A stretch of 64,000 nucleotides of DNA from Clostridium sp. 28_17. Its GTDB lineage: Bacteria; Bacillota; Clostridia; TANB77; CAG-508. Shown piece after piece: positions 1-17,715 of this stretch. Every line of letters begins with the position of its first letter. Position 1 is the first letter of the stretch. The stretch is from assembly GCA_001916065.1 (NCBI GenBank), contig MNRS01000019.1, positions 31,948-95,947 of the forward strand. The letters are read 5' to 3'. The notes under the pieces were generated by a model. It was given only the letters and a program-made list of their open reading frames with translations. It ran no database searches and was not told the DNA's origin. A program made the translations under genes and the position numbers.

Positions 1-97
1 TAAACAAATTCGAAGGCATACATCGTGAAGTATAATATATTAAAATTTAAAAGAAAGGGTTGTCAATAAAAGAATAAAAATAAAAAGCAAGAAGATT

Positions 98-643
98 TTA
101 AGAAGTCTTTAACTCGTATATAGAATTTATTAAGTTAAAGGTTTCTTTTTTCATCAAATCTTTATTATGAGAAGCATTCACTTTGGGAATGAAAGGTTCA
201 CCAAATTTCACAGTCACAGTTGAAAAAAATCGAGGACGTGAAGTTATATAAACAGGTATAATAGGGAGAGAAGTCTTATTTTTATCATGTTTTTTTAATA
301 ACCTTAAAATACGCATAGTAGCTGCAAAGTCCTTGCCATTTCTTTTTATAGGAATGGCATTATAATATGACAAAAAATTCGAAACGAATTTATTTTTAAA
401 AAGTTCAGACTTTGCAACACTATACATATTATCTATTTTGGGATAAAGAAAAACAGGGTCAAAAATCCTAGAGTGATTAGGACAAATTAAACACTTATCA
501 TATTTATTTAAAACATCAAGGTTTTCATATTTTACACGAAATAGAATACGACAAACAAAACCAATTATTACATTTTTAATTAAGTTATACAATAAAATCA
601 CCTTTAAATTACAAAATTTCATCTTTACAAATTTGAGATGCAT
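98..643 (-). CDS. Lysophospholipid (1-acyl-sn-glycerol-3-phosphate) acyltransferase family protein
   Basis: Contains H(X)4D acyltransferase motif (CPNHSRIFDPV); hydrophobic N-terminus; start 7 nt after upstream gene stop. Confidence 0.55.
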   Translation of the reverse strand: MHLKFVKMKFCNLKVILLYNLIKNVIIGFVCRILFRVKYENLDVLNKYDKCLICPNHSRIFDPVFLYPKIDNMYSVAKSELFKNKFVSNFLSYYNAIPIKRNGKDFAATMRILRLLKKHDKNKTSLPIIPVYITSRPRFFSTVTVKFGEPFIPKVNASHNKDLMKKETFNLINSIYELKTS

Positions 644-649
644 ATTTCA

Positions 650-1208
650 TTACAGCATCATATCCACATTTTTCGCAATATTTTTCTTTTCTTGTGTATT
701 GTAATATTTTGGCTCTAATCCAATAACAAAGTTAGAAAATTGTTTAAGTGGAAGTGTTGGAGTATTACTTGTAATACCTCCATCCATCATATAATGAATT
801 TTATTATTAATAGATACTCTATTTGGAGTGAAAATAACTGGGATAGACGAAGAACTTCGAATCGCTTCAGAAATAGGTCTATCATCATAGTATGTAAATT
901 TCTCCATAGGGCTGGAACTATAATAAATAGATTTTCTTTTTGTTATATCTAAAGCAGGAATTATAAATGGTATATCAATGTCTTTCATTATATGTTTGTT
1001 ATGTTTAAGTACTATTTCATCAACACTTTTGCGTATTATTTTAGGGTTTTTTAAACCACCTTTTATCATAAGACTAAAAGACACATGAGCCAATACTTGC
1101 TCCTGAAATTGCCTCAATCTCTACTCCAAGTTCTTTAAGTGCACGGATTGCACCAATATTAATTGCAGCCTTAGCACCTCCTCCAGTACAAGCCAACGCA
1201 ACCTTCAT
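650..1208 (-). pseudogene. Patatin-like phospholipase, frameshifted
   Basis: ATG at 1208 with AGGAGG RBS encodes MKVALACTGGGAKAAINIGA...GASIGS (oxyanion GGG and GxSxG motifs), then stop at 1074-1076; remainder incl. DGG motif (MMDGGITSN) continues in +1 frame as ORF 650-1117. Confidence 0.5.
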
Positions 1209-1414
1209 TTTTAATCCTCCTTTAAACTATAATTGCTAAAATTGATTATAACACAAAATTAGGCAGGTATCTACATTTTGTGCTTAAATAATATTGCATT
1301 TTTATTTGTGCATATGATACAATTAGCAAAAGAATAATGGGATAATTATCATCCAGAAAATGCAAAAAAATATTTGAATTGCAAACATAAAATACGGAAT
1401 GGGGGAAAAATAAA

Positions 1415-2302
1415 ATGAATAACATGTTTTCTATTATTGAAATTGGGAGTAACAATACCAAAATACACATATACAAAGAAGAAAAATTGATATATGAAAA
1501 AACTATTACAATTGAATTTAAGAAAAATTACCAAATAAAAAAGCAAATAAATGAAGAAGACTTAAATAAATTGTATGAAGTAATAAAAAATGCATTAACT
1601 TATACAAACAATGTAAATATATATGGATGTAGTATATTTAGAAACATATCAAATGAAGAATTAGACGAAATTAATAAAAAAATATATGAAAAATTTAAGT
1701 TGGAAATTCAAGTTGTGTCACAAGAAGATGAAGCAAATTATACTGCTCTAGGATGTTATAAAAATATAGAATACAATGAGAATATATGTATTTTTATAGG
1801 AGGTGGAGGTTCAACTGAACTTATATTTGTAAAAAATAAAGAAGTTATAGCCAAAAAATATTATGATTTTGGAGTGGTAGACATTACAAATAAATTTGAA
1901 AGCCTAAAAAATGACATTCCAACATGTTCTTTCAGTGAAGTATACGATTATGTAGATGATATAATTGGAAAAATAGATATTAAAGCAGATATTTTAATAT
2001 TAGCTGGTGGTGACCATTTATATTGGTATAACAATGCAAGATATAATTTAATGGAAAATACTTTATATAAAAATGAAAAACAAAAATATATGCTAACAAT
2101 CGAAATGAGTGATAATTATGATAAAAATGCTTTAGTAACTTCATTAGATAGAATTAGAGCAAATAGTGATAATCCCAAATGGTTTGATGGTTCAAGAGCA
2201 ATGAAAGTGCTAACAAATTTAATATCACATAAAATAGAAAGCAAATATATTGTTCCAACAAAAATAAATATGGAAGATGGATTAAAGATGAAAAATAAGT
2301 AA
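1415..2302 (+). CDS. Ppx/GppA phosphatase family protein (ASKHA N-terminal domains only)
   Basis: IEIGSNNTK, YGCSIFRNISN, VVSQEDEANYTALG, IFIGGGGSTEL motifs typical of Ppx/GppA; paralog of 8314-9198. Confidence 0.7.
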   Translation: MNNMFSIIEIGSNNTKIHIYKEEKLIYEKTITIEFKKNYQIKKQINEEDLNKLYEVIKNALTYTNNVNIYGCSIFRNISNEELDEINKKIYEKFKLEIQVVSQEDEANYTALGCYKNIEYNENICIFIGGGGSTELIFVKNKEVIAKKYYDFGVVDITNKFESLKNDIPTCSFSEVYDYVDDIIGKIDIKADILILAGGDHLYWYNNARYNLMENTLYKNEKQKYMLTIEMSDNYDKNALVTSLDRIRANSDNPKWFDGSRAMKVLTNLISHKIESKYIVPTKINMEDGLKMKNK

Positions 2303-2361
2303 ATCAAGAAGTAAAAAGACATAAAATTAAATTCTTTTTAAAAGTATCAAAAGGAGTAGTA

Positions 2362-3051
2362 ATGAACTTTAAAGACAAAGTATTTTTAATAACAGGGTCA
2401 ACTTCAGGAATAGGTCAAGGAATTGCAAAATCTTTGCTAGAAGAAGGTGCAAAGGTTGTTATTAATTATGGACATGATGAAAAAAAGGCAGAAGAAACAA
2501 GAAGGTTATTTGAAAAATATCAAGATAGGAGCTTGTTTATAAAAGCAGATATATCAAAAGAAAACGATGTCATAAATATGTATAAAAAAATAGAAGAAAA
2601 ATTTAATAGATTAGATGGACTAGTAAATAATGATGTTAATGTTATTGCAAGATGGATGTGCATAAAAAATGCCATTCCGCTTTTGAAAAAATCTAATATG
2701 CCAAGAGTAGTAAACATAGCATCAAGATTAGGAACAAAACCGATTCAAGACTCTGTTGCTTATTGTACAAGTGAAGCTGCTACTATAATTCTAACACAAT
2801 GCTGTGCTTTAGAGTTAACACCAAAATATAATATAAAAGTAAATACTGTTAGTCCATCAATGACATTAACACCACTTGCTAAAAAAAGTTATACAGAAGA
2901 TGAAATAAAACAAACAGCAATGAAAAATCCAAGTGGTAGATTGGGTGAAGTGAAGGATACAGTTAATGCAGTATTATTTTTATTAAGTGAAGAAGCAGAT
3001 TATATAAATGGAGAAAATCTTAATGTCAATGGCGGAATATTATTAGTATAA
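2362..3051 (+). CDS. Short-chain dehydrogenase/reductase family protein, probably degenerate
   Basis: TGSTSGIGQG cofactor motif and NGG C-terminus, but only 229 aa, NNAG replaced by NNDVNV and YxxxK is YCTSE (catalytic Lys absent). Confidence 0.6.
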   Translation: MNFKDKVFLITGSTSGIGQGIAKSLLEEGAKVVINYGHDEKKAEETRRLFEKYQDRSLFIKADISKENDVINMYKKIEEKFNRLDGLVNNDVNVIARWMCIKNAIPLLKKSNMPRVVNIASRLGTKPIQDSVAYCTSEAATIILTQCCALELTPKYNIKVNTVSPSMTLTPLAKKSYTEDEIKQTAMKNPSGRLGEVKDTVNAVLFLLSEEADYINGENLNVNGGILLV

Positions 3052-3095
3052 AAATATTAAAGGGAAACTTTGTATAAGTTGAAAGGTGTAAATGA

Positions 3096-3482
3096 ATGAA
3101 AAATTTAAAGATTGTAAGAACTATAGATTTATGGACTGAACAACATGAAAATCATAATAAATGTTTCAATGGAGCTTTTGTTGATGGATTTGAAAATAAC
3201 CAGATTGCATTTGATGAGTATAAAATAATAAAAAATTGTAATTGTATAATTTCTGTTAGTAACCCAAGTATTAATATAGGCAATAAACATAATGTTATTG
3301 TTTTCTATAAAGATAAAAATCCTGTCAGATTAATGGTTATTAATAAAAATACCGATATTGATAAATGCATTCATATTGCATTAAAACAATATTTTAATAA
3401 TGGTATATTACAAGACTTATATGATAGTCTAGGTGTAAAATCAACAATAATAGATATGAATGAGGAACCTATATATAATTGA
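3096..3482 (+). CDS. Hypothetical protein (same frame as 3534-3797, separated by single TGA)
   Basis: ORF only; no recognisable motifs. Confidence 0.3.
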   Translation: MKNLKIVRTIDLWTEQHENHNKCFNGAFVDGFENNQIAFDEYKIIKNCNCIISVSNPSINIGNKHNVIVFYKDKNPVRLMVINKNTDIDKCIHIALKQYFNNGILQDLYDSLGVKSTIIDMNEEPIYN

Positions 3483-3533
3483 GTTGATAGTACAAAAGAA
3501 ATTGATGTTGGCTCATGTGATAGATGGAATCTT

Positions 3534-3797
3534 TTGTATAATATGTTAAAGGGAAGTTATACGGAGAGCGATACGCAATATGGTAATTATGGAAGCGATA
3601 AATATGAGTTTATTCCAGATTTATGTATAAATTATAAACTAACAACAGATAAGGAGATTTTTAAAATAGAGCATAGATGTATATTTGATTTAATATTATA
3701 CGATATATGCGCCAGAAGATTTTTAAATTATGAAATAAAAATATTTATAGGAGGTAAAAGATTTGAAAGAAGAATTAATATGCCAAATAACAGATAG
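3534..3797 (+). CDS. Hypothetical protein, possible C-terminal part of interrupted gene
   Basis: In frame with 3096-3482. Confidence 0.25.
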   Translation: MYNMLKGSYTESDTQYGNYGSDKYEFIPDLCINYKLTTDKEIFKIEHRCIFDLILYDICARRFLNYEIKIFIGGKRFERRINMPNNR

Positions 3798-4302
3798 AGA
3801 TATAGGAGAAGCACCTGTAGAAATGATAAATCCACAATTAAGAATAGGTGCAAGAGGAATAGTTATAAGAGAAGATGGAAAAATTGCAATATTCAATAAA
3901 AGTAACAAAAATGAGTATAAATTACCTGGTGGAGGATTAGAAGAAGAAGAAAAACCAGAAGAAGCATTTAAAAGAGAGGTATTAGAAGAAACTGGTTGTG
4001 AAATAGAGATTTTAAAATGCTTAGGAACAGCAGAAGAATATAAATCATTAAATAATTTTAAACAGATTTCTTATATTTTTGTAGGAAAAGTTTTAAAAGA
4101 TACTAAGCAATTACATGTGACACAAAAAGAAAAGGAAGAAGGAGCAAAATTACTATGGGAAACTCCTGAAAATGCAATAAAACTTATAACAAAGTCTTAC
4201 AATGAATTAATTGCTTCAAAATATAGTTCTGTATATTCTACAAAATTTGTTGTATTAAGAGATAGAAAAATTTTGGAAAGATGGATCGAAGATTATAAAT
4301 GA
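3763..4302 (+). CDS. NUDIX hydrolase
   Basis: Nudix box GGGLEEEEKPEEAFKREVLEETGCEI; TTG start after AGGAGG. Confidence 0.75.
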   Translation: MKEELICQITDRDIGEAPVEMINPQLRIGARGIVIREDGKIAIFNKSNKNEYKLPGGGLEEEEKPEEAFKREVLEETGCEIEILKCLGTAEEYKSLNNFKQISYIFVGKVLKDTKQLHVTQKEKEEGAKLLWETPENAIKLITKSYNELIASKYSSVYSTKFVVLRDRKILERWIEDYK

Positions 4303-4317
4303 AATTCGAGGTGTAAA

Positions 4318-4614
4318 ATGAACAAAATAACAGATAGATTTTTAAAACTATTTTATAAAATTTCACAAATACCAAGAGAATCTGGACATTAAAAAAGATT
4401 TGCTGATTTTTTAGAAATGTTTGCAAAAGAAAACAATTTAGAATATTATAAAGATAAGAGTAACAATGTTCTAATAAAAAAGAATGGAAAAATATATGGT
4501 GCTTTTTTAGATGAAAAAATGATTGCATGGATATTCTTATCAGTTTCAAATAGGATGAAAAATATTAAAAGATATATTTTATTAAAAAAATTAGGAGAAG
4601 GCGAAAATGAATAA
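4318..4614 (+). pseudogene. pepD: Remnant of aminoacyl-histidine dipeptidase (pepD) N-terminus with nonsense codon
   Basis: MNKITDRFLKLFYKISQIPRESGH*KRFADFLEMFAKENNLEYYKDKSNNVLIKK matches PepD N-terminus (IP..SGHEK..A.E..L....D..NVLIKKPA); GAA to TAA at 4390-4392; downstream diverges. Confidence 0.5.
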
Positions 4615-5218
4615 TACTATAAAACCAATAATATTTGATTTGGATGATGTAAGAAACAAGGCTGAAAACGGTGACAAATTTGCATGCTATATTTTAGGTA
4701 GAAGTTATGATAGTGAGGAAAACGGAGCAGAGCAAAGTTTTGAAAAAGCGATGTACTGGTATGAAAAAGGAAAAGAATTAGGAGATGCTCGTTGTGCATA
4801 CGGAGTTGGTGCTTGTTATTATTTTGGAGATGGAGTAGAACAAGATAAAGGAAAAGCAAAACAGATACATATTGAGGCTTATGAAACACTATTAGAGCTT
4901 ATAAATAAAGAAAAAGAAAATCTAAGAAGACAGGCATTTTCTAAATTTTGTTTAGGTGCTTATTACTATTTTGGATTTGGAAATATCGAAAAAGATGTAA
5001 ATAAAGCATTTGAATTAATACATGACTGTGCAATGCAAGGACATCTTCCAGCAATTTATGATTTAGGAGCAAATTTTTATTATAATGGAATTGGAACAGA
5101 GAAAAATTTGAAATTATCTGAATATTATTTAAAGATGGCAGCAAATGCAGGATTACCAAGAGCAAAAGCTAAATTTGAACAATACAAAAATACATATGAA
5201 AGTGAGATTGAAAAATAG
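4607..5218 (+). CDS. Sel1-like repeat (SLR/TPR-like) protein
   Basis: Repeated A..WY.KG.ELGDA...Y.LG..YY.G.GV..D units. Confidence 0.75.
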   Translation: MNNTIKPIIFDLDDVRNKAENGDKFACYILGRSYDSEENGAEQSFEKAMYWYEKGKELGDARCAYGVGACYYFGDGVEQDKGKAKQIHIEAYETLLELINKEKENLRRQAFSKFCLGAYYYFGFGNIEKDVNKAFELIHDCAMQGHLPAIYDLGANFYYNGIGTEKNLKLSEYYLKMAANAGLPRAKAKFEQYKNTYESEIEK

Positions 5219-5239
5219 TTAATTTAGGAGGTATAATAA

Positions 5240-5791
5240 ATGGAAAATTATTTTATAATACATGGCTCATTTGGGAGCCCTTTTGGAAACTGGTTTAGTT
5301 GGTTACAAGATTTTATATCAACAGACAACAAACAAGTATATGTACCAGATTTTCCAATAGGAGTAGGATATCAAAATTATGAAAATTGGAGTAAGTTATT
5401 AAAATATTATTTAGATTTAGAACTTATAAATGAAAATACAACAATTATAGGTCATAGTATAGCACCAATATTTATATCAAAATTTTTAGTTGAAAATAAA
5501 GTGAAAGTTAAGAAGTTAATATTCGTATGTGGATTTAATAATTATCTAGGAATTAATGAAGAATATGATAATGTTAATAAAACAATGTATTTTGATAACT
5601 TGCAAGATGTACAACAATATGCTAACGAAATTATTTGTTTCTATTCAGATAATGACCCATATGTGAGATATGAAGTAGAAAAAGAATTTGCGGATACAGT
5701 TGCGACAGAACAAGTTTTAATACATAATGGTGGTCATATCAATAGCGAAAGTGGATACGATACATTTGAAGAAATAGTAAGTTATTTATAA
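5240..5791 (+). CDS. Alpha/beta hydrolase, YdeN/RBBP9-like serine hydrolase family
   Basis: N-terminal IIHGSFGSP..NWF and GHSIA nucleophile elbow. Confidence 0.5.
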   Translation: MENYFIIHGSFGSPFGNWFSWLQDFISTDNKQVYVPDFPIGVGYQNYENWSKLLKYYLDLELINENTTIIGHSIAPIFISKFLVENKVKVKKLIFVCGFNNYLGINEEYDNVNKTMYFDNLQDVQQYANEIICFYSDNDPYVRYEVEKEFADTVATEQVLIHNGGHINSESGYDTFEEIVSYL

Positions 5792-5951
5792 GAACTTGTT
5801 AATAAGAAAAATTGAATGTTATTAATAAATATGATAAAAATATATAAGTATTATAATAGGAGGAAAAAATGGAAGGTAATAATATGAGTGGTAATATAGC
5901 TTTTTTAAGAGATACATTTTTAGATGCAGAAAACAATATTTAGAAGAACTA

Positions 5952-6185
5952 ATGAAACAACCTAAATATAAGGCATTTATAGAAAAACTAAACCAATATG
6001 GTTCAGAAGAACTATCTCTTGAGGCTATTAGAAGAATAAGTGATATTGAAACTGGTAAAGTTAATGTAGATGATTTAGAAAGAGTAGAAACAGAAATTAC
6101 ATTGTTATTAGCTTCAATTGAAGATTGTGTTAAAGAAAAAGTAAAAGAAAAAAACAAAGAATCTGATGAAGAACTAGAAATATAA
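5952..6185 (+). CDS. Hypothetical protein
   Basis: ORF only, acidic C-terminus. Confidence 0.25.
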   Translation: MKQPKYKAFIEKLNQYGSEELSLEAIRRISDIETGKVNVDDLERVETEITLLLASIEDCVKEKVKEKNKESDEELEI

Positions 6186-6219
6186 TCGGATTTTTTAAAT
6201 CATTATATTTAATTATAAT

Positions 6220-6414
6220 ATGCTTTATAAAATTAAGTCAAGGAAAATAAAGTTAGGAAAATTAAATTTTTACATTATAGATGATAATTATATTAAATAT
6301 TTAAGTCAATTTGATAAACATATTGCTTATAATAAAAATGAAAAAAGACCATATATAGGAGTTGTAATTATTGTTGAAGAGCATTGTTATTTTGTACTCC
6401 ACTTATCGCAATAA
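6220..6414 (+). pseudogene. Truncated type III toxin ToxN/AbiQ-like N-terminal fragment
   Basis: LNFYIIDDNYIKYLSQFDKHIAYNKNEKRPYIGVVIIVEEHCYFVLHLSQ resembles ToxN/AbiQ N-terminus (KFYTI..YI.YL..FD..V......RPY.G.V......Y.APL.S) but stops after 64 aa; no intact ToxI repeat array upstream. Confidence 0.4.
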
Positions 6415-6422
6415 AATTTAAA

Positions 6423-6453
6423 AGGAAGTGTTTGGAAAAATACTTCCTTTTTT
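6423..6453 (+). terminator. Rho-independent terminator
   Basis: GGAAGTGTTTGGAAAAATACTTCC hairpin followed by T7. Confidence 0.5.
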
Positions 6454-6611
6454 TAACTATTTATGATATAGTTATCATAAATAATCATTATATTAATATA
6501 CAAGAAAAAACTTAATACGAATACAGTTAGTTTTGATAAAAATAAAACTAAAAAATAATGATAATGCATAACAGATAAAATAAAAAAATACTAATAAAAG
6601 AAGGAATATAT

Positions 6612-7691
6612 ATGTTAAAAGACTTATGTTTTGAAATAATACAAACATGCCCTAATAAATGCAAATTTTGTTCTTCAAATTCCTCAAAAGACAAAACAAC
6701 AATAATAACAATAGAAGACTTTAAGAAAACAGTTATGTATTTTATTACTCATGGTGGAATTGGAGAAATATCAATTTCAGGAGGAGAACCTTTTTTACAT
6801 CCAGATTTATTCGAAATGATAAAGTTTTGTAAAGACAATGGAATTAGAACAGTTATATTCACCAGTGGAATAAAAAGAACACCAGCAATACCAGAAAAAA
6901 CAATAGAATATATAAAAAATAAATGTAAAAAAGATTTAGAAGAAATAGAAGAACATGAACCATGGAATGAAAGACTAAAAAGAAATGTGAAGGCGTATTA
7001 TAAAAGAATGATTAATCCAGGAGAATTTACTTCACTAACAAGGCAAGAACTAGAAAAAATAAAAGAATTAGGAGTAGATAAAATCGTATTTGATTGGCAA
7101 GCATTAGATGAAAATATTGATAATGAGTTAATGGGAAGAAAAGCATTAAATACATATCTAATAGATTCTTTGGTTAGAGCAAGCATTGTTGGATTAAATG
7201 TAGATGTTCATTTTATTCCTATGAAACCAAATTATAGACAATTTCCAGATATCATAGAATGTTTAGAAATTTCAAAAGTAAAAAATATAAGTATTTTAAA
7301 TTTTGTACCACAAGGTAGAGGACTAGAAAACAAACAAGACTTGATGTTAAATGAAACAGAGCTAAGAGAATTTAGTGAAATATTAAAAAAAGAAAAAGAA
7401 AAATATAGCGGTAACATAAGAATTGGAATTCCATTAAATGGAAAAATGTCTCATTTATGCACAGCAGGAACTGAAAAATTAGATATAAAATATGATGGAA
7501 CAATACTTCCATGTCCAGCATTTAAAGAAATGACCGTAGAAAAAATGGAAAAATATGGTATAAAATTACATAGTATATATGAGGATTTGGAAAAAGTAGT
7601 TTTACATGAGGGAAAAAGAAAATTACCATTATGTAAGCAAGTTTATGGATTTAATGGAGAATTGACAGAAAGTGAAGAGATAGAGTTTTAA
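6612..7691 (+). CDS. Radical SAM enzyme of unknown function
   Basis: CPNKCKFC (CX3CX2C) at residues 13-20, ISISGGEPFLH glycine-rich SAM motif, C-terminal Cys triad (C-x19-C-x44-C) suggestive of auxiliary cluster. Confidence 0.8.
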   Translation: MLKDLCFEIIQTCPNKCKFCSSNSSKDKTTIITIEDFKKTVMYFITHGGIGEISISGGEPFLHPDLFEMIKFCKDNGIRTVIFTSGIKRTPAIPEKTIEYIKNKCKKDLEEIEEHEPWNERLKRNVKAYYKRMINPGEFTSLTRQELEKIKELGVDKIVFDWQALDENIDNELMGRKALNTYLIDSLVRASIVGLNVDVHFIPMKPNYRQFPDIIECLEISKVKNISILNFVPQGRGLENKQDLMLNETELREFSEILKKEKEKYSGNIRIGIPLNGKMSHLCTAGTEKLDIKYDGTILPCPAFKEMTVEKMEKYGIKLHSIYEDLEKVVLHEGKRKLPLCKQVYGFNGELTESEEIEF

Positions 7692-7703
7692 GGAGGAATA
7701 TTT

Positions 7704-8234
7704 ATGAAAATATTAATAGGAACAAAAAATCCAGGAAAAATAGAAGGAGCAAAACAAGCATTTGAAAAATATTTTGATAAAGTAGAAATAGAAGGAATAC
7801 CAGTAGATTCAAATGTAGGAGACCAACCAATAAATGAAGAAATACTTCAAGGAGCAAAAAATAGAGTGGAAAATCTAAAAGAATATGCTTCAAAAAACAA
7901 TATAAAAGCAGACTTTTATATTTCAAGTGAAGCTGGTATCACAGATTCTTTAGGAGAATGGATTGACATAAATGCAGTAGTGGTGGAGGATTCAAAAGAA
8001 TTCCAAAGTATAGGAACAAGCCAAGGATTTCCAATTCCTGATAAATACATTGATGAAATTAAAGCAACAGAACTTGGAAAAGTTATGGACAAGATATTTG
8101 ATGGACAAGAATTAGGCAAAGGAAAAGGCGGAATAAGTTACTTAACAAAAAATGAAGTATCAAGAATTGATTTAACAAGAACTGCGTTCATTATGGCACT
8201 AACAAAACACATTAATGGAGACATATGGAGATAG
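7704..8234 (+). CDS. Inosine/xanthosine triphosphatase, YjjX (NTPase_I-T) family
   Basis: KILIGTKNPGKIEGAKQAF...SSEAGI...GEW layout resembles YjjX; start 12 nt after radical SAM stop with AGGAGG. Confidence 0.65.
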   Translation: MKILIGTKNPGKIEGAKQAFEKYFDKVEIEGIPVDSNVGDQPINEEILQGAKNRVENLKEYASKNNIKADFYISSEAGITDSLGEWIDINAVVVEDSKEFQSIGTSQGFPIPDKYIDEIKATELGKVMDKIFDGQELGKGKGGISYLTKNEVSRIDLTRTAFIMALTKHINGDIWR

Positions 8235-8313
8235 AAATTACATTTATTTTAATTCTTATAAAAAGAGAATTGAAAGATGTATAAGAGAAAAATATAAAAA
8301 AGGAGATAAATAA

Positions 8314-9198
8314 ATGAATAAAATAATTATAGAAGTAGGGTCAACATGTTTAAAAATAGACAATTATGATGGGAATAAAATAAAAAAATTAGATGGAATT
8401 ACAATACAATTCAAAAAACATTATAACGAAGACAAAAAGTTAAGAGAAAATGATGTGAAAGAACTAATAAAAAAAGTAAATGAATTAAAATCAATTTCTA
8501 AAGACATATATGTATGTGGAACAAGCATTTTCAGAACCTTAAATAAAGAAGAAAGAGAAAAATTCTTAAAAAGATTCAAAAATGAAACAGGATACGATTT
8601 CAACATAATATCTCAAGAAAGTGAAAATGAATTAACTGTATTAGGGGCAACCAGATTTGTAAAAGACAAAGTTTGTGTATTCATTGGTGGAGGAGGTTCT
8701 ACTGAAATTGCAATTTATGATAAGGAAATAAAAGAAAGTGTTAATACAAATATTGGAGTTATAGATGTAATGCAAGAATTTCCTGATTTAGCGGAAAATT
8801 ATGCAACAACTGATTTAGAAGAAGTAAAAGCATTTATTAAGGAAAGACTAAATTTACCAAAACAAAAAGCAGATATATTAATATTGGCAGGTGGTGGACA
8901 TGAAAAGTTTGCCAGAAACTCAGGAATAAAATATGAAGAAAATACTTTATACAAAGATAATTCAGAACCAATTATGATGGACATAGAAACAAGAAGAAAG
9001 GAAACAGAGAGATATTATAAGTCTATTTCTTTAGATGAGATAAGACAAAGAGTTAAAGACCCAGATTGGTGGTATGCTACAAGAGCAATGTCTGCATTTG
9101 CATTAGTGGTTGCAGAAGCAATAGATGCAAAATATATTGTTCCAACAGATATAGCAATGGCATACGGAATTATAAAAGATGGAGACAATAAAAAGTAA
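8314..9198 (+). CDS. Ppx/GppA phosphatase family protein (paralog)
   Basis: IEVGSTCLK, VCGTSIFR, ISQESENELTVLG, VFIGGGGSTEI motifs. Confidence 0.7.
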   Translation: MNKIIIEVGSTCLKIDNYDGNKIKKLDGITIQFKKHYNEDKKLRENDVKELIKKVNELKSISKDIYVCGTSIFRTLNKEEREKFLKRFKNETGYDFNIISQESENELTVLGATRFVKDKVCVFIGGGGSTEIAIYDKEIKESVNTNIGVIDVMQEFPDLAENYATTDLEEVKAFIKERLNLPKQKADILILAGGGHEKFARNSGIKYEENTLYKDNSEPIMMDIETRRKETERYYKSISLDEIRQRVKDPDWWYATRAMSAFALVVAEAIDAKYIVPTDIAMAYGIIKDGDNKK

Positions 9199-9218
9199 AT
9201 TTGAAAAAGGAGATAAAT

Positions 9219-9659
9219 ATGGTTGTTATAGCAGGGTGTTTAATCGTAAAAAATAATAAGATATTAATGGTAAAAGAAGCCAAAAAGAAATGTTATGGAC
9301 AATGGAACTTTCCAGCAGGCCATGTAGAGGAAAATGAATTGGTAACAGATGCAGCAATTAGAGAGGCTTATGAGGAAACAGGTTGCAAAGTAAAATTAAC
9401 AGGAGTATTGCCAATAAGTACAGCGTATTTAAAAGAAAAAGAAACGGCAATAATTATAAAATTCACAGCAGATGTTATTGAAGAAAATATCAAATTTAAT
9501 ACAAAAGAGATATTAGATGTAAAATGGTTAGATTTAGATAAAGTTAGAAATATGACAAAAGATGAACTAAGAGGATATGATACAGCACTTCAAGACATAA
9601 AAGACCTTGAGAATAAAAAAATATATCCATTAGATATTTTTAATAACAAAATATACTAG
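9219..9659 (+). CDS. NUDIX hydrolase
   Basis: Nudix box GHVEENELVTDAAIREAYEETGCKV; ATG at 9219 with AGGAG RBS. Confidence 0.75.
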   Translation: MVVIAGCLIVKNNKILMVKEAKKKCYGQWNFPAGHVEENELVTDAAIREAYEETGCKVKLTGVLPISTAYLKEKETAIIIKFTADVIEENIKFNTKEILDVKWLDLDKVRNMTKDELRGYDTALQDIKDLENKKIYPLDIFNNKIY

Positions 9660-9713
9660 ACAAAAATAATAAAATTATTAAATATAAAAACATAGATAAT
9701 TTGGAGATAAAAA

Positions 9714-10544
9714 ATGATATATCTAAAAACATTTAAATTAAGTGAAAGCAGAAGCACAGACCCCAATATATATCCATTTTGCATATTCAAAAATAAAGAA
9801 CCAAATATATTTGTATTCGACGACATCACAGTACTATATGGAAACAATGGGAGTGGAAAATCAACAATATTAAACATGATTGCACACAAATTAAACTTAA
9901 AAGGCAAAGAACGAAACTATTCTAGAATTGACGGATGGTGGCCATATTTTGAAAACTATTCAAATGAATGTGAATATGAACTAGGAGTAAACGAATATGG
10001 AAGTAGACTAACTAAAATTCCTACAAATAGTAGATATATAAAAAGCGAAGAGATATTATATGAAATTAGGAAAATACAACAAGATGCAGTCTTACAAGAA
10101 AGCATAGAAAGTACTCTAACCAAAGAAAGAGGAAGAAAAAATGCAAAAGATTTTTTAAAAACAAAAGAAGGTGGAAAACAATTTCCAAGATTTGCATTTG
10201 CGCAAGATAAATATTCAAATGGAGAAACAACATTACAAATATTAGAAGAGGATATTGAACCAGATAAATTATATTTATTAGATGAGCCAGAAGTGTCACT
10301 TTCACCACAAAATCAAGTAAAACTTGCAGAAAAAATAAATGAAATGGCAAGATATCTCGGAGTTCAATTCGTTATAGCAACTCATTCTCCATTTATGTTA
10401 GGAATATTAAATGCAAAAATATACAATTTAGACACAAAAGATTATAGAGTAGAAAAATGGAATGAACTTGAAAATGTAAGATATTTTTATAACTTTTTCA
10501 AAAGTAAAAAAGAAGAATTTGAAGATTATTATAAAAAGATATAA
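9714..10544 (+). CDS. Small ABC-type (AAA_21-like) P-loop ATPase
   Basis: Walker A GNNGSGKST, Walker B LYLLDEPE, H-loop ATHSP; 276 aa, no transmembrane or second domain. Confidence 0.7.
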   Translation: MIYLKTFKLSESRSTDPNIYPFCIFKNKEPNIFVFDDITVLYGNNGSGKSTILNMIAHKLNLKGKERNYSRIDGWWPYFENYSNECEYELGVNEYGSRLTKIPTNSRYIKSEEILYEIRKIQQDAVLQESIESTLTKERGRKNAKDFLKTKEGGKQFPRFAFAQDKYSNGETTLQILEEDIEPDKLYLLDEPEVSLSPQNQVKLAEKINEMARYLGVQFVIATHSPFMLGILNAKIYNLDTKDYRVEKWNELENVRYFYNFFKSKKEEFEDYYKKI

Positions 10545-10587
10545 AGAAGAAACAACAAGATAAATAAAAATAGAGGAGGATATATCT

Positions 10588-11166
10588 GTGAAAATAGGAA
10601 TAGATTTAGATGGTGTAGTTATAGATAGTGAAACAACATTCAGGACTTATGAAGAAATCTTTGATATAGATATTTTAAAAGGAAACAATCTAATAAATAA
10701 AAAAGAACCAAAATTTCAAGCTAGATATAATTGGACAAATGAGCAAGAAAAAGAATTTATTGAAAAATATTTCATGACAGTATCAAAAGAAAGTAATTTA
10801 ATGTCAGGATTTGTAGGCATATACAATTTATTAAAAGAACAAGGACACGAATTTGTCGTTATTACTGCAAGAGGTGGTTTTATAAAAGAAATGAAAGATG
10901 ATGCAATAAGATTATTAGAAGAAAATAATATTAAGTTTGATAAATATTATTGGAATGTTGAAGATAAATTAGAAATTTGTAAAAATGAAAAAGTAGACAT
11001 TATGATTGATGATGATTGGAAAATTATAAAAAGACTAGCAGATAATGAAGTAAAAACATTATATTTTAGGGATACAAACTTGATGAAATTAGAAGAAAAT
11101 CAGTACATCAAAGAAGTTAATAATTGGGGAGAAATTTATAGATATATAAAATGTAATAAAACATAG
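10588..11166 (+). CDS. HAD-superfamily 5'(3')-deoxyribonucleotidase-like protein
   Basis: GTG start after AGGAGG; N-terminal KIGIDLDGVV HAD motif I as in NT5C family. Confidence 0.55.
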   Translation: MKIGIDLDGVVIDSETTFRTYEEIFDIDILKGNNLINKKEPKFQARYNWTNEQEKEFIEKYFMTVSKESNLMSGFVGIYNLLKEQGHEFVVITARGGFIKEMKDDAIRLLEENNIKFDKYYWNVEDKLEICKNEKVDIMIDDDWKIIKRLADNEVKTLYFRDTNLMKLEENQYIKEVNNWGEIYRYIKCNKT

Positions 11167-11177
11167 AGGTGAAATAA

Positions 11178-11237
11178 ATGAATAAAATAATTAAAAATTT
11201 AGCAATGGCATATGGAATTATAGAAAATGAAAAATAA
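11178..11237 (+). pseudogene. Internally deleted remnant of a Ppx/GppA paralog (start fused to end)
   Basis: 19-codon ORF MNKIIKNLAMAYGIIENEK; RBS plus first 5 codons match start of 8314 gene and last 12 codons match its end (AMAYGIIKDGDNKK). Confidence 0.55.
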
Positions 11238-11271
11238 ATGACATATTATGAAAAAAAGAGAGGAAATATTC

Positions 11272-11685
11272 ATGTTAAAAATAAATTTAGGTGGAACTTG
11301 CGGTAATAGCAAGTGGAGAAATGAATTAATTGAAAAATTAAATAAAAAAATTGAATATAGAAATCCAGTTGTGAAAAACGGAACATGGAAATATAACAAA
11401 ACGATAAAATTAAAGAAAGAAAATGATATGAGAGAATGTGATTATTTAGTTTATGTAATAACACCAAGACAAAAAGGTTTTAGTTCAATTGCATCAGCCG
11501 TTGATTATAGCAATAAAGTTCCTAAAAAGGTTATATTTTGTATTTTAAAAGAATATGAAAATGAAAAATTTGAAGGTCACCAATTAGAAAGTATTAATTA
11601 TGTTGAAGATATAATAAAAAATAATGGTGGACTAATTCTAGAAAATTTAGATCAAATTGCTGAATTTTTAAATAATAAATGTTAA
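11272..11685 (+). CDS. Nucleoside 2-deoxyribosyltransferase-like (DNPH1/Rcl-like, SLOG-fold) protein
   Basis: Size and CDYLVYVITP....SSIASAVDY region resemble the flavodoxin-like deoxyribosyltransferase family; assignment tentative. Confidence 0.4.
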   Translation: MLKINLGGTCGNSKWRNELIEKLNKKIEYRNPVVKNGTWKYNKTIKLKKENDMRECDYLVYVITPRQKGFSSIASAVDYSNKVPKKVIFCILKEYENEKFEGHQLESINYVEDIIKNNGGLILENLDQIAEFLNNKC

Positions 11686-11705
11686 AAAATTTTAAGAGGA
11701 AAATT

Positions 11706-12311
11706 ATGATAAAAAGATATAAACAAAACGAAACAGATACATTAGCAAAAATACTAAAAAATGATGGAGTAATTAGTGTTCCAACAGACACGGTATATGG
11801 AGTATGTGCCAGAATAAACTCAAAAAAAGCACATGACAATTTAGTAAAAACAAAAAATAGACCAATTACAAAACCATTTCCAGTAATGTGTTCAGATGAA
11901 GAGCAAATAAAAAGTATAGCAATAGTAAATGAAAAGGCAGAAAAACTAATAAAAGAATTTATGCCAGGTCCAATAACACTAATTTTAGAAAAAAGACCAG
12001 AAGCACCAGAATATGTTAACAATGGAAAAACAACCATTGCAATACGAATGGCAACATCAAAAGTTGTAAAAGAATTAATTATAAAAACAGGATGTCCAAT
12101 ATTTATGAGCAGTGCCAATCAAAGTGGAGAGCCAACATGTACTAACCTAGATGAAATAGAAAATGAATGTCCAAATCTAGACGGAATGATGGAAGGTACT
12201 GTCAAATTTGGAAAAGGAAGTACAATAGTTGACTGTGTTTCAAAAGAATTAAAGATTTTAAGAGAGGGACCAATTACAATAGAACAAATTAGAGAAGTTC
12301 TTGAGGAATAA
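11706..12311 (+). CDS. tsaC: L-threonylcarbamoyladenylate synthase TsaC (YrdC/Sua5 family)
   Basis: KILKNDGVISVPTDTVYGVCAR...NRPITKPFPVM...IAIRM...P.FMSSANQSGEP. Confidence 0.8.
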   Translation: MIKRYKQNETDTLAKILKNDGVISVPTDTVYGVCARINSKKAHDNLVKTKNRPITKPFPVMCSDEEQIKSIAIVNEKAEKLIKEFMPGPITLILEKRPEAPEYVNNGKTTIAIRMATSKVVKELIIKTGCPIFMSSANQSGEPTCTNLDEIENECPNLDGMMEGTVKFGKGSTIVDCVSKELKILREGPITIEQIREVLEE

Positions 12312-12395
12312 GAGCCATAAAATTAAATATTAGTCGATAAAAATTTTAAAAGAAATGTTTAGTCAATATTAAGTTGTAGAGGAGATTTTATTATT

Positions 12396-13049
12396 GTGAA
12401 TAAAGAATATATAGAAATTAATAAAAACGCATATGAAATTTTAGCAAATGAGTATAATACTAGAAATTATAAAATTGGCTATGATTTTTGGAATAATATA
12501 TATGATGATTTGAATTTAAAAAATAAAGAGAATATTAAAATATTAGAAATTGGTCCAGGACATGGAAGAAATATTAAATTTTTTAAACAATATAATAATA
12601 AATTTAAAATAACTGCATTAGAAATTTCTAAAAATATGTGTAATATTATAAAAAAAGATCATCCAGACGTACAAATTATAAACGATAACATTTTGAATTA
12701 TAGTTTTGAAAATGACCAATTTGATATTATTCAAATGATAGCTGTTATCCATTTATTTCCAATAGAAGATGCTAAAATTGTATTAAAAAATGTTAAGAAA
12801 TCTTTAAAAGAAGATGGATATTTAATTATAGGAACTACTATTAATGAAAAAGATATGGAAGGTTATTATGAAAAAGAAGATTATAATATTAAAGTAAAAA
12901 GATTTAGACATAAGTATACTAAAGAAACTTATGAGAAATTATTAAATGAATGTGGATTTGAAATATATAAACCATATTTTGTTAATGAAAATGATAGAAA
13001 TAAATTATGGTATGATGCTGTATGTAAAAAAGTTAATAAAAAATATTAA
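12396..13049 (+). CDS. Class I SAM-dependent methyltransferase
   Basis: ILEIGPGHGRN motif I; acidic motif II. Confidence 0.7.
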   Translation: MNKEYIEINKNAYEILANEYNTRNYKIGYDFWNNIYDDLNLKNKENIKILEIGPGHGRNIKFFKQYNNKFKITALEISKNMCNIIKKDHPDVQIINDNILNYSFENDQFDIIQMIAVIHLFPIEDAKIVLKNVKKSLKEDGYLIIGTTINEKDMEGYYEKEDYNIKVKRFRHKYTKETYEKLLNECGFEIYKPYFVNENDRNKLWYDAVCKKVNKKY

Positions 13050-13284
13050 AAGTAGATTTATATGAAACAGTATATTGCTAAAAGAAGTCAGAAAAGTAAT
13101 AAAAAAAGGTGAAGTTGGAGTTACATTTATGAGCAAAAATAAAGTAAACAATAACTGATAGAAAGTACTTTTGAATTAAATCTTATTGGCTGATATCATA
13201 GAAAAATAAGCAATTCTACTAACAGTCGATTGCTAAAAAAGATATAAAGTGATAAGATACAAAAAATTCAAAGGAGGTTTTAAA

Positions 13285-15171
13285 ATGGACAACGAAAAAT
13301 TTGGAAAATTCATAAAAAAATTAAGAAAAGAAAAAGGAATAACACAAAAAGAATTAGGAGAAAAATTAAATATTACAGATAAAGCAATATCCAAATGGGA
13401 AAGAGGATTAAGTTTTCCAGATATAACAATGCTAAATATATTAGCAGAATTTTTTGAAATTGATGTATCAGAATTATTAAATGGAGAAAAAGGAGCAAAA
13501 AAAGATATTGATATAGATAAAGAAATTTCTGAAGCAATAGAAAAATATAAAAATATTGAAGAAAAAAGAAAAAAGAAAATTAACAAAACAAAGAAAACAA
13601 TAGGAGTAATATCAACTATTATATTAATTATTTCATTATTAATACAAATTGCATATTTATTTGTATTGAAAAGACATAATTATGAGTATGTAATTGATAT
13701 TTTAGAATACATAATTAATCAAATAATTATAATTTCAGCTACAATGAGTTTGATTTTATTAACTAAAAAAGAAAAAATTAAGAATATAATTATATATATT
13801 CTCTGTATAATGTTTTCTGTAATTAATATTTCATTTATGTGTAACAATGGATTCAAAAATAAATGTATAATAAGTTTTTCAAATGATTTTTCAAATGAAC
13901 TTGTTGTTAAAACAAATAAAAATACAGGAGCAATAAAAATATATAGAAACCAAAAATTCTTTTTATTTGCAAAAGAAAAAGAGCAACTAGATTACGAATT
14001 AGATGGAAAAATAAAAAAACAATGGCTAACAAATGATGTATGTGGAATAACTTATAAAGATAAAAATGGTATATTACAAGAATATGTTGTTACATATGGA
14101 GATAGAGGCAATGGAATATCATATTATTATGTAACATCAGCATTAATAGGCGATTGGCAAGTATTCACACAATATGGTAATCCGACTCAAATGTTAGTTG
14201 ATAGTAAAGGTATAACAATAAAAAAGAATGAAAAAAGTGAACTTTTTACCTATGAAAATTGCAAACAATATGGAACAACAGCATTGGTATTATATAAAAA
14301 TGATATACCTAAATATATAATTGCATTAGATAAAAATTGTGAAATTGATGAAAAAACATATATTATAAAAAAAGGTGGAACAATAATATTATCTGAAATT
14401 TCAATGGATAAAACAATTTCTGAATCATTATATTGTATGACATTTAAAGATGAAAAAGATTTAGGTAATTATAGTGTTGTAAGTGTTGCAAAAGATAGTT
14501 ATAAAATTCAAGATGGAATAATGTATATAAGTTTTGATGGAAAAAATACAGTAGAAGTACCTGGAGATTTTTCAAAAATGGTAGATAGTTATAATGAATA
14601 CAATTATCAAATATCAAACGAAAAAACAATTTTTTATTATATAAAAGATTCAAAAAGATATTTAGTTTATTCTGATGATATGGGAAATAATTGGACTACT
14701 GTAGAGATAGAAAATGAGTCTTCAATACAAAATATACATTTTATAAATTCAAATATAGGATTTATGCTTAAATTTGAAGATGTTGCAATGGGAATAGCAT
14801 TTGGTAAAATTAGCAAAACTGTTGATGGAGGAAAAACTTGGAAAGATATATATTTTGGAATGGGAGATGAAAAGAAAATATTTAAGACATCTAGTCAAAT
14901 AAAATTTATTAGTGAAAATATTGGCTTTTTAACAATGCCTTCTGCTGGAGGAGAAACTTCTGAAATGTATATTACAAAAGATGGAGGAAATAGTTTTAAT
15001 AAATTAGAAATTATAAATAGTGATATTTATGATTATTATAATTTGCCAACATTTGAAGATGGAGTATTAAGTATAAAAATAACACAAGGTTCAGACGGAG
15101 ATTATAATGGTGGGGATTATAAGGTCTATTATTCAAAAGACTATGGTGATAGTTGGAGCTTGGAAAAATGA
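13285..15171 (+). CDS. Membrane-anchored XRE-family HTH regulator with extracytoplasmic BNR/Asp-box (Ycf48-like) domain
   Basis: N-terminal HTH (GITQKELGEKLNITDKAISKWERG), three TM segments, C-terminal repeats DDMGNNWT, DGGKTW, DGGNSF, DYGDSW. Confidence 0.65.
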   Translation: MDNEKFGKFIKKLRKEKGITQKELGEKLNITDKAISKWERGLSFPDITMLNILAEFFEIDVSELLNGEKGAKKDIDIDKEISEAIEKYKNIEEKRKKKINKTKKTIGVISTIILIISLLIQIAYLFVLKRHNYEYVIDILEYIINQIIIISATMSLILLTKKEKIKNIIIYILCIMFSVINISFMCNNGFKNKCIISFSNDFSNELVVKTNKNTGAIKIYRNQKFFLFAKEKEQLDYELDGKIKKQWLTNDVCGITYKDKNGILQEYVVTYGDRGNGISYYYVTSALIGDWQVFTQYGNPTQMLVDSKGITIKKNEKSELFTYENCKQYGTTALVLYKNDIPKYIIALDKNCEIDEKTYIIKKGGTIILSEISMDKTISESLYCMTFKDEKDLGNYSVVSVAKDSYKIQDGIMYISFDGKNTVEVPGDFSKMVDSYNEYNYQISNEKTIFYYIKDSKRYLVYSDDMGNNWTTVEIENESSIQNIHFINSNIGFMLKFEDVAMGIAFGKISKTVDGGKTWKDIYFGMGDEKKIFKTSSQIKFISENIGFLTMPSAGGETSEMYITKDGGNSFNKLEIINSDIYDYYNLPTFEDGVLSIKITQGSDGDYNGGDYKVYYSKDYGDSWSLEK

Positions 15172-15764
15172 TTGATACAAATATTATTTTGCATTTTTTA
15201 ATTATCCAAGAGATAAACGAAAGTGATTTTGATAATATTTTTGCACAAATTATTGTTATGAAAGATTCTGATAGTTTAATAAAATATTATGATGTAATAA
15301 AAGGAGAAGAATTTATGTCTGACAGTAAAGTAAATTATACTTTGCCTGTATCAAAAGGTGGAATAGTTGATACATCAGAACCTTTTAAATATTCTTGTGT
15401 AATAGCTTATCTTCCAAATTATATGATGAGTAATGGCTATTTTAATGTTATAGTACAAAATGAAAAGATAAAAGTAAATAAAGAAACAGCATTAAACATA
15501 GCAAAATCTTATTTAAAGAATTTGAAATATAAAGGGTGTACTAACTTTTTGGATTTGAATTATATTAGAGTTTCAAAAGCTTATGAAAACAATTTCTTAA
15601 ACATAGAAGATAAAGAAAATCCAAAAGAAGATACTAATAAAAAATATACTGTTTGGAAAGTATTATCATATTCTGAAGAAGATCCTTGTACTTCTGCAAT
15701 TTTATATATTGATGCTAATACAGGGAAAATAATTGGTGGAAAAATAAATTATGCAACAGATTAA
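15168..15764 (+). CDS. Hypothetical protein, PepSY-like C-terminus
   Basis: ATGA overlap with upstream stop; YTVWKV...ILYIDANTGKIIGG. Confidence 0.35.
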   Translation: MIDTNIILHFLIIQEINESDFDNIFAQIIVMKDSDSLIKYYDVIKGEEFMSDSKVNYTLPVSKGGIVDTSEPFKYSCVIAYLPNYMMSNGYFNVIVQNEKIKVNKETALNIAKSYLKNLKYKGCTNFLDLNYIRVSKAYENNFLNIEDKENPKEDTNKKYTVWKVLSYSEEDPCTSAILYIDANTGKIIGGKINYATD

Positions 15765-15808
15765 TTTTTAAATATCAAACATTAGCTAATATTTATGGAG
15801 AAAAAATT

Positions 15809-16378: not shown

Positions 16379-16384
16379 AGAGTA

Positions 16385-16681
16385 ATGTTTGAGGCTTGTA
16401 GATGGGAAGAAAGAGGTGCGAGAGTAAATTCTATATCTCCTGGAATTATAGTAATACCACTTGCAATAGACGAATTTAATGGACCTAGAGGAGATTTTTA
16501 TAAGAATATGTTTGCAAAATGTCCAGCAGGTAGACCAGGTACAGCAGATGAAGTAGCAAATGTTGCAGAACTTATAATGAGTGAAAAAGGAGCATTTATA
16601 ACAGGCTCAGACTTTTTGATAGATGGTGGAGCAACAGCTTCATATTATTATGGAAAATTAAAACCAGAAACAAAGGAGTAA
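16385..16681 (+). pseudogene. C-terminal fragment of a short-chain dehydrogenase
   Basis: RVNSISPGII...GRPGTADEVANVAELIMSEKGAFITGSDFLIDGGATAS matches SDR C-terminus; Rossmann N-terminus absent; locally higher GC. Confidence 0.5.
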
Positions 16682-16839
16682 AATTGATTTTTTAAAGTAG
16701 TGCTTAATTGTAGTAAAACAATTAGCACACATCTCCTTTTATTTTCAAAGAACTACTTGAAATATAGTAGTTCTTTTTGGTATAATCATAACAAAAAATT
16801 ACAAATTTTTGTAGTAACATTCTATTAAAGGAGAAATAC

Positions 16840-17676: not shown

Positions 17677-17715
17677 TAATATATAAAGAAATTATTAGGA
17701 GGAAATTATATAAAA

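Follow-up and report, generated by a model that had tools for sequence, protein, structure and literature searches.

The first 17 kb of a 64 kb stretch of DNA from Clostridium sp. 28_17 (assembly GCA_001916065.1, contig MNRS01000019.1, positions 31,948-95,947 of the forward strand), referred to here as the window, is filled with short, co-directional genes of ~26% GC, among which are two intact Ppx/GppA-like genes and a 19-codon open reading frame (ORF) that carries the two ends of a third. The host is an uncultured species of gut Clostridia, and its lineage is abundant in the gut. Genes were identified with Pfam and NCBIfam profiles, and PHROG, PADLOC and Rfam were also searched; the genes identified in this way lie on the plus strand, and window positions are numbered from its first letter. 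The two intact paralogs, Ppx1 (1415-2302; 295 amino acids, aa) and Ppx2 (8314-9198; 294 aa), had already been recognized in an initial annotation made from the sequence, and both exceed the gathering score of 27 for PF02541 (Ppx-GppA), at 59.5 and 62.9 bits, respectively. They are 34% identical to each other over 288 aa (E 6e-51).

Ppx2 and the 19-codon ORF lie in an interval bordered on the left by a radical SAM/SPASM-type gene (6612-7691; Pfam and NCBIfam) and on the right by tsaC, encoding L-threonylcarbamoyladenylate synthase (11706-12311; TIGR00057 176 bits, cutoff 123), both of which were found in all related loci. Between these borders the gene order is an inosine/xanthosine triphosphatase gene (NTPase_I-T; 7704-8234; PF01931 152 bits, TIGR00258 137 bits, cutoff 117), Ppx2, a NUDIX hydrolase gene (9219-9659; 146 aa; PF00293 78 bits), a small ABC/AAA_15-AAA_21 type ATPase gene (9714-10544; 276 aa; Pfam), a gene for a HAD-type phosphatase-like protein (10588-11166; 192 aa), the 19-codon ORF (11178-11237) and a nucleoside 2-deoxyribosyltransferase-like (DRT-like) gene (11272-11685; 137 aa; PF15891 33.9 bits, cutoff 30). 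The initial annotation had placed the NUDIX gene behind Ppx2 and the DRT-like gene behind a reduced third copy, and both placements were borne out. The 19-codon ORF is very probably the pseudogene scar of a third paralog, Ppx3, left in a recombining interval, and with the same high probability the Ppx-like family is loosely tied to housecleaning enzymes.

Anatomy and origin of the 19-codon reading frame

The ORF at 11178-11237 translates as MNKIIKNLAMAYGIIENEK followed by a stop codon. Its 5' 23-mer, comprising the ribosome binding site (RBS), the start codon and five codons, occurs at two sites in the 64 kb, the ORF itself and the gene at 8314, and the same is true of its 3' 21-mer, while the expectation from shuffled sequence is 0.01 matches for each. 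Because these matches far exceed the shuffles, the similarity is not A/T-rich noise; the shuffles together with the colinearity with intact parent genes rule out chance resemblance, and the objection that the likeness might be confined to low-complexity A/T runs was not upheld.

Orthologous loci, designated by L numbers, were recovered from many gut metagenome assemblies of uncultured Clostridia by exact-protein look-ups and by a scan of species-representative genomes (11-sequence alignment). The initial annotation had suggested that an intact third copy be sought at such loci, and one was found: in the related strains L010, L026, L030 and L100-105, a 291-aa gene, Ppx3, stands at the exact position of the ORF with colinear flanks (L010:12865-13740; L026:6001-6876). 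Relative to this gene, the ORF consists of codons 1-5 and the last 14 codons, two of which are substituted; the intervening 816 nucleotides (nt), codons 6-277, are absent in frame, and both the RBS and the stop codon are retained. When the window is compared with L026, the match runs through codon 5 and resumes at codon 278, continuing past the stop, with flanks that are 95-97% identical. The earlier proposal of a precise internal deletion that spared the RBS and the first five codons is supported by these comparisons, with the correction that the last 14 codons remain and not the last 12.

The parent that had been proposed, the gene at 8314, did not stand. The C-terminus of the relic, AMAYGIIENEK, is identical to the end of Ppx3, while Ppx2 ends in AMAYGIIKDGDNKK, and the 13 C-terminal residues of the relic match Ppx3 of L010 at 12 of 13 positions and Ppx2 at 7 of 11. 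Ppx3 is the better match, and a copy of Ppx2 is ruled out. Ppx2 and Ppx3 share 85% protein identity, and each is ~34% identical to Ppx1. Neither tblastn nor a family hidden Markov model (HMM) run on six-frame translations detected a further Ppx-like copy or fragment in the 64 kb.

Similar genes only 2 kb apart, such as Ppx2 and Ppx3, may confuse short-read assemblers, and an artefact produced from these 85%-identical repeats was considered as the source of the relic. This is extremely unlikely. Assembly collapse is excluded because the junction joins codon 5 to codon 278, which are non-homologous positions and not the product of a collapsed repeat, and because the identical scar is present in six other metagenome contigs (L001-L006) that originate from different studies and assemblers.

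The residues lost with codons 6-277 include the GS, FR, E104 and GGGSTE motifs, and since no catalytic motif is left, the relic, judged by its sequence, most likely does nothing. In L008, a further deletion takes the 3' end of the HAD-like gene and the whole relic and keeps the DRT-like gene and tsaC; in L009 and L011 the relic segment is missing and the ATPase gene is followed directly by tsaC. The relic is dispensable, as these three loci lack it. They also bear on the proposal that the mini-ORF has been kept as a useful upstream ORF that loads ribosomes and provides translational coupling of the DRT-like gene and of tsaC, which is essential, with the genes upstream. The in-frame deletion, which spares the RBS, start and stop, and the identical sequence in six samples could be read in this way, and no terminator-like sites were found between 6000 and 13300, making one long transcript plausible. 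Nevertheless, this proposal is very improbable, as DRT-like and tsaC persist in L008 after loss of the relic, L009 and L011 do without it, and the DRT-like gene has its own RBS, AGAGAGG, ahead of its true start at 11272 (an ATG at 11248 reads ATA in L026). Moreover, an in-frame outcome is expected by chance in one case out of three, and identity among near-clonal strains is uninformative on selection. Promoter-like sites around the relic were no more numerous than in shuffled sequence.

In possessing an intact ortholog in sister strains, in having lost its motifs, and in that the other duplicate was kept, the relic resembles ordinary internal-deletion pseudogenes; it differs from them in that its deletion is exactly in frame and, with RBS, start and stop kept, leaves a translatable ORF of 19 codons. 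The relic itself is routine, a case of one duplicate lost by in-frame internal deletion in a strain-variable cluster, and has little novelty.

Strain variation between the radical-SAM gene and tsaC

The shared DNA of the interval is 92-99% identical among closely related strains, and the gene sets differ. Read from the radical-SAM gene to tsaC, the simplest arrangements are HAD-Ppx (L012-15) and HAD-Ppx3-DRT (L026). The commonest, NTPase-ATPase-HAD-Ppx3 (L030/L100), makes up 19 of the 24 sites inspected for an exact match to Ppx3 (P0025), and the addition of a Ppx2-NUDIX block gives NTPase-Ppx2-NUDIX-ATPase-HAD-Ppx3 (L010, L101-105). The window itself has NTPase-Ppx2-NUDIX-ATPase-HAD-relic-DRT, L008 has NTPase-Ppx2-NUDIX-ATPase-truncated HAD-DRT, and L009 and L011 have NTPase-Ppx2-NUDIX-ATPase. 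The variable elements, singly or in pairs, are the NTPase, Ppx2-NUDIX, the ATPase, the HAD-like gene, Ppx3 and the DRT-like gene. No arrangement lacking both Ppx2 and Ppx3 was seen among the observed loci, and either one may be missing.

Junction comparison of the window with L030 revealed a direct repeat of 8 nt, TGGAGATA, on either side of the Ppx2-NUDIX block, with its left copy at 8226-8233 and its right copy at 9702-9709; the NUDIX gene is gained and lost with Ppx2, the block being missing as a whole in L030/L100 and present in L010 and L101-105. The DRT-like gene follows intact Ppx3 in L026, where it is 97% identical to that of the window, and is absent from L010, L012 and L030, and tsaC is the usual downstream neighbour of Ppx3. 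The exact Ppx1 protein was found in 365 collection blocks, and the arrangement of the window (L096) in 21 of the 24 longest contigs read. A 294-aa gene that lies upstream of the window in L096 was considered as a fourth paralog and ruled out (hhalign probability 0.4%).

A possible trace of how the interval was assembled lies directly after the ATPase stop codon, where window positions 10543-11193 align to L012 9362-10016, beginning inside the radical-SAM ORF of L012 (8303-9382). The last ~21 nt of a radical-SAM gene of the L012/L026 type are present at 10543-10563 as an orphan 3' end, which differs from the 3' end of the window's own radical-SAM gene. This orphan end suggests an illegitimate recombination event that linked two alternative versions of the interval head to tail. 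Another scar may be a 17-mer resembling the tsaC 5' end in the 3' end of the ATPase gene (53 nt at 74%). The ATPase, 276 aa long in the window, has 271 aa in L009/L011, where it abuts tsaC, and the extra DYYKKI overlaps the tsaC-like 17-mer.

The breakpoints in the interval lie in short A/T-rich or RBS-like repeats, and the intergenic spacers are 10-80 nt long. Only two inverted repeats were found in 7600-11800, one inside Ppx2 and one within the 3' end of the ATPase ORF, neither at a cassette boundary, and there is no integrase among the annotated genes of 1-17 kb. An integron-type cassette array is ruled out by the lack of attC-like inverted repeats at gene ends and of an integrase.

A neighbour-joining tree of 70-odd species-level homologs placed Ppx2, Ppx3 and the genes of L012, L026 and L030 in one clade. 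Because this clade is at the species level, Ppx2 and Ppx3 are lineage-specific duplicates or diverged alleles, and import of Ppx2-NUDIX from a distant species is ruled out. The duplication that the initial annotation had assumed among the Ppx paralogs holds for this pair. The single Ppx gene of L012 (10001-10888; also in L013-L015) is a chimera: its first ~540 nt are Ppx3-like, with 90-98% identity over the 5' part, and its last ~300 nt are Ppx2-like, with 95-98% identity over the 3' part. Thus, the Ppx2 and Ppx3 lineages have recombined or undergone gene conversion. The presence and absence of the two copies across the loci fits relaxed selection on a redundant duplicate, without proving it.

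In the course of events proposed here, Ppx3 formerly stood between the HAD-like gene and the DRT-like gene or tsaC, and a deletion of 816 nt in this lineage removed codons 6-277 and left the 19-codon ORF. This deletion is one of many insertion and deletion events between the radical-SAM gene and tsaC. Head-to-tail joining of two versions of the interval would have brought both Ppx copies together, after which either could be lost, as Ppx3 was in the lineage of the window and, on this model, Ppx2-NUDIX in the commonest lineage. The population series, which includes strains with a lone copy, with two intact ones, with one or the other missing and with the relic gone, provides a natural record of short-repeat and illegitimate recombination building and eroding an A/T-rich gene cluster.

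A wider hotspot of accessory and mobile genes surrounds the locus. In the flanks of other strains are AbiEi/AbiEii, a 1318-aa helicase-PLD protein, Fic, insertion sequence (IS) elements (rve) and a large serine recombinase; these accessory and mobile genes have the coordinates L008:1598-3036 and 13862-17818, L009:7027-8163 and L098:569-2368. The presence of AbiEi/AbiEii, Fic and a PLD-helicase in such flanks, together with a ToxN fragment in the window, raises the possibility of an anti-phage defence island that acts by nucleotide depletion or modification with Ppx-like genes as components, and the NUDIX protein matches the candidate defence family PDC-S07, with partial matches of the ATPase to AriA/PtuA and of the radical-SAM core to pVip. 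However, no PADLOC match was obtained for any of the Ppx-like, HAD-like, DRT-like and NTPase proteins, the partial matches of the ATPase and of the radical-SAM protein cover generic core regions only, and both the radical-SAM gene and tsaC belong to the conserved core. Because the neighbours of Ppx-like genes are, in addition, classic housecleaning enzymes (dUTPase, Ham1, Maf and ITPase), a defence island is an improbable explanation.

The Ppx-like family and its gene partners

When 1.84 billion cluster representatives (50% clustering) were searched in full with HMMER, 392 relatives were recovered at E<=0.001, from which it follows that the Ppx-like family is small. The PF02541 match of the window proteins spans only profile positions ~19-184 of 285. 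A profile built from 49 diverse members matches the short two-domain Ppx/GppA protein of Aquifex aeolicus (1T6C, 2J4R), which, like the Ppx-like proteins, has ~300 aa and consists of the two ASKHA domains only, with an E value of 8.5e-25. The AlphaFold (AF2) model of Ppx2 has a pLDDT of 95.9, and its top Foldseek match was likewise 1t6c (E 9e-21, TM 0.75); the first 38 matches were all Ppx/GppA proteins, followed by NTPDases. These second-tier matches (E ~1e-11) include enzymes of the NTPDase/apyrase group (GDA1/CD39), such as Legionella NTPDase1, which share the ASKHA fold and whose nucleotide substrates would suit the gene neighbourhood of the Ppx-like proteins, but their structural similarity to Ppx2 is much weaker (TM 0.55-0.62).

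Active-site features shared with the Aquifex protein are the D/E-x-G-S motif, an invariant Glu and the GGSTE loop. E104, the catalytic Glu equivalent to E121 of E. coli PPX and E119 of Aquifex, is invariant (49/49), E131 is present in 47 of 49 sequences, and the G126-S129-T130 positions of the GGSTE loop are conserved; alignment to 2j4r places the E104 and E131 motifs on EQEGRY and GGGSTE. Other conserved positions are D/E7, G9-S10, K14 and R74. The family differs from the Aquifex protein in being only ~20% identical to it, in residing amid housecleaning genes, sometimes fused to NUDIX or NDT-like domains, and in replacing the phosphate-2 Asp. In the 49-sequence alignment, Ppx2 position 124 is Ile in 19 sequences, Asn in 19, otherwise Val, Ser or Cys, and never Asp, so that the canonical Asp ahead of the GGG loop (DxGGGSTE; Aquifex D141, E. 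coli D143) is absent family-wide; the remaining catalytic-site motifs are retained. Two members, P0193 and P0248, have Trp at sites of conserved Gly, for example in NIGWGSTEL and WARSCS. Their source organisms probably use UGA as a Gly codon (code 25), in which case an incorrect table was applied in translation.

None of the NCBIfam equivalog cutoffs was reached, with scores of 62-64 bits for TIGR03706 (cutoff 307), 15-23 for NF008108 (864) and 17 for NF008260 (624). Because these scores fall so far below cutoff, the Ppx-like proteins are classed here as a divergent branch of the Ppx/GppA superfamily and not as exopolyphosphatases or GppA. The same scores (15-64 bits vs 307-864) argue against an alarmone-degrading pair, in which a GppA-type step converting pppGpp to ppGpp would be combined with a NahA/MutT-type NUDIX step. 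Such a pair is suggested by the Ppx/GppA fold and the catalytic Glu, and two reports document NUDIX enzymes that hydrolyse (p)ppGpp (PMC7593582; bioRxiv 10.1101/2020.03.23.003749). It is nonetheless a poor prospect, as the other partners of Ppx-like genes (dUTPase, ITPase, HD, NDT-like) do not act on alarmones and no RelA/SpoT homolog was noted near the locus.

Partners were surveyed at 61 species-level loci, taking the same-strand downstream gene within 400 nt. The downstream genes, of which the initial annotation had proposed a survey, fell into 42 unrelated clusters: there is no fixed partner. Even so, the neighbourhood is clearly non-random. Immediately downstream were NUDIX (12 loci), Ham1 (3), HAD (3) and UDG (2) genes; immediately upstream were dUTPase (4), HD/YfbR-like (4), NUDIX (4), NTPase_I-T (3), Ham1 (2) and Maf (1) genes. 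As judged with an HMM built from local NUDIX genes and across loci that are not independent, NUDIX occupied the +1 position in 13 of 73 cases (18%) compared to 7% of genes within 6 kb (odds ratio 3.3, p 0.001). Families of nucleotide-pool housecleaning (NUDIX/MutT, ITPase/Ham1, Maf, dUTPase, YfbR-type HD and DNPH1/Rcl-type NDT-like N-glycosidases) account for roughly a third of the immediate neighbours at the 61 loci.

Housecleaning enzymes also supply the fusion partners of Ppx-like proteins. The distant family member P0164 is a NUDIX::Ppx fusion, and a homologous C-terminal domain of ~120 aa of the nucleoside 2-deoxyribosyltransferase (NDT)/SLOG type is fused to Ppx in at least 10 cluster representatives (P0254, P0207, P0261, P0242, P0240, P0212, P0158, P0248, P0270 and P0230). 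When these C-terminal domains were scanned alone, 7 of 8 matched Nuc_deoxyrib_tr, the best at 28.6 bits against a cutoff of 28.8; two also matched PF15891, the family of the DRT-like protein of the window, and one passed the cutoff of a YtoQ-type family. A stand-alone NDT-like gene lies directly upstream of a Ppx-like gene at L082:5674-5976 and L092:5676-5990. Comparison by hhalign showed no more than weak direct homology between the fused domain and the DRT-like protein of the window (E 0.005, probability 7%), which fall into separate Pfam families of a similar general type. As NUDIX and DRT-like proteins recur both as neighbours and in fusions, the two partner types in the window are seen elsewhere too. 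Two apparent Rosetta-stone fusions, P0016 (NTPase::Ppx) and P0043 (HD::Ppx), proved to result from an in-frame deletion and from stop-codon read-through, respectively, and were not used as evidence. The coupling of the family to NUDIX and NDT-like partners is real, loose and non-obligatory.

The initial annotation had viewed the locus as a two-gene unit, composed of Ppx and an interchangeable downstream effector, that was duplicated three times and diversified by partner swapping. Parts of this view persist: Ppx2-NUDIX comes and goes as a block, NUDIX is enriched at +1, the DRT-like gene follows Ppx3 in L026, and distant members are fused as NUDIX::Ppx and Ppx::NDT-like. A general copied unit is not apparent, given 42 downstream clusters in 61 loci. 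The partner of Ppx1 also differs by strain, with an SDR gene in the window, a gene for a 767-aa protein in L009 and, in L038, an SDR gene upstream instead of downstream; the gene behind Ppx3 is mostly the housekeeping gene tsaC, with the DRT-like gene varying independently, and Ppx2 and Ppx3 carried no common partner at their duplication. Hence, triplication of a two-gene unit is rather unlikely, and the favoured explanation remains loss of Ppx3 from a recombining interval, together with loose ties of the family to housecleaning.

Enzymes such as DNPH1 and MilB exemplify NDT-like proteins that deglycosylate nucleoside monophosphates. From their gene context, Ppx-like enzymes may strip phosphates from nucleotides or their oligophosphate products, acting beside hydrolases of non-canonical nucleoside triphosphates (NUDIX, ITPase, Ham1 and dUTPase) and beside enzymes that dephosphorylate or deglycosylate nucleoside monophosphates (HD, HAD and NDT-like). 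They are, on this reasoning, candidate nucleotide or oligophosphate phosphohydrolases that would cooperate loosely with NUDIX enzymes and NDT-like N-glycosidases. To our knowledge, no Ppx/GppA-type enzyme is an established member of nucleotide-pool housecleaning, and a small, divergent, uncharacterised family that is repeatedly tied to NUDIX and NDT-like proteins is a lead, of moderate novelty, to a new housecleaning or nucleotide-catabolic activity. A stronger proposal, which is possible and to be held with considerable doubt, is that the family constitutes the undescribed nucleotide-processing half of a two-component unit, whose interchangeable partner, present as an adjacent gene or as a fused domain, is a NUDIX hydrolase or an NDT/SLOG-type N-glycosidase. 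If so, non-canonical or signalling nucleotides would be dephosphorylated by the unit and then deprived of their base, the notion of a module with a variable partner would reflect real biochemistry, and the region from the radical-SAM gene to tsaC would be a hotspot at which units are exchanged between strains.

Several observations weigh against the favoured explanation. The relic junction has no clear microhomology, and the two substitutions, T278K and I280L, are adjacent to it. The mini-ORF, whose stop lies 34 nt before the DRT-like start, may have a translational-coupling role through its retained RBS, start and stop. The joining of two interval versions is modelled from one robust scar, the orphan radical-SAM end; the tsaC-like 17-mer is no stronger than chance repeats in A/T-rich DNA and is not relied on. 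Both Ppx2 and Ppx3 are intact in at least 5 samples, and redundancy therefore does not force loss. The function of the family is assigned through guilt by association, at species-level loci that are not phylogenetically independent, and with the phosphate-2 Asp missing, its activity may differ from that of relatives or be weak.

Other genes and decayed genes of the window

Upstream of the variable interval, a second NUDIX gene lies at 3763-4302 (Pfam/NCBIfam), and genes for a Sel1-repeat protein and a serine hydrolase are found between it and the radical SAM gene. The radical SAM gene adjoins a tRNA(U5)-methyltransferase-like gene. It could not be assigned to an equivalog, and the best matches to it are PqqE-like and partial. 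The HAD-type protein has no Pfam or NCBIfam match and was recognized through phrog_415 ('polynucleotide kinase', E 9e-9) and its DxDGV and DDD motifs. Searches of PDB sequences with the HAD-like and DRT-like proteins gave no matches, and an Rfam search of 1-17000 matched no RNA family.

The gene following Ppx1 (2362-3051) encodes an SDR that, as described in the initial annotation, lacks the catalytic Lys, having YCTSE in place of the classical YxxxK. Because the same YCTSE is present in an intact 250-aa ortholog (L038:4993-5745), the Lys-less YxxxE is a subfamily trait and not a sign of decay. The window copy is 80% identical to this ortholog, with one 21-aa in-frame gap directly after VNN; its Pfam match is split into two stretches, and its Rossmann core, including the NNAG region, is not full-length.

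Other decayed genes include the N-terminal 57 residues of a 463-aa M20 peptidase (4318-4488), a GNAT fragment (4420-4578), a ToxN type III toxin cut down to its N-terminal 54 residues (6253-6408) and a C-terminal SDR-like fragment (16421-16630). The in-frame deletion in P0016 (427 aa), which comes from another strain, joins NTPase_I-T to Ppx2 at a Lys-His common to both, with loss of the NTPase C-terminus, of the spacer and of ~35 residues from the start of Ppx. With other decayed genes and in-frame deletions nearby, precise deletion is simply the local mode of decay.

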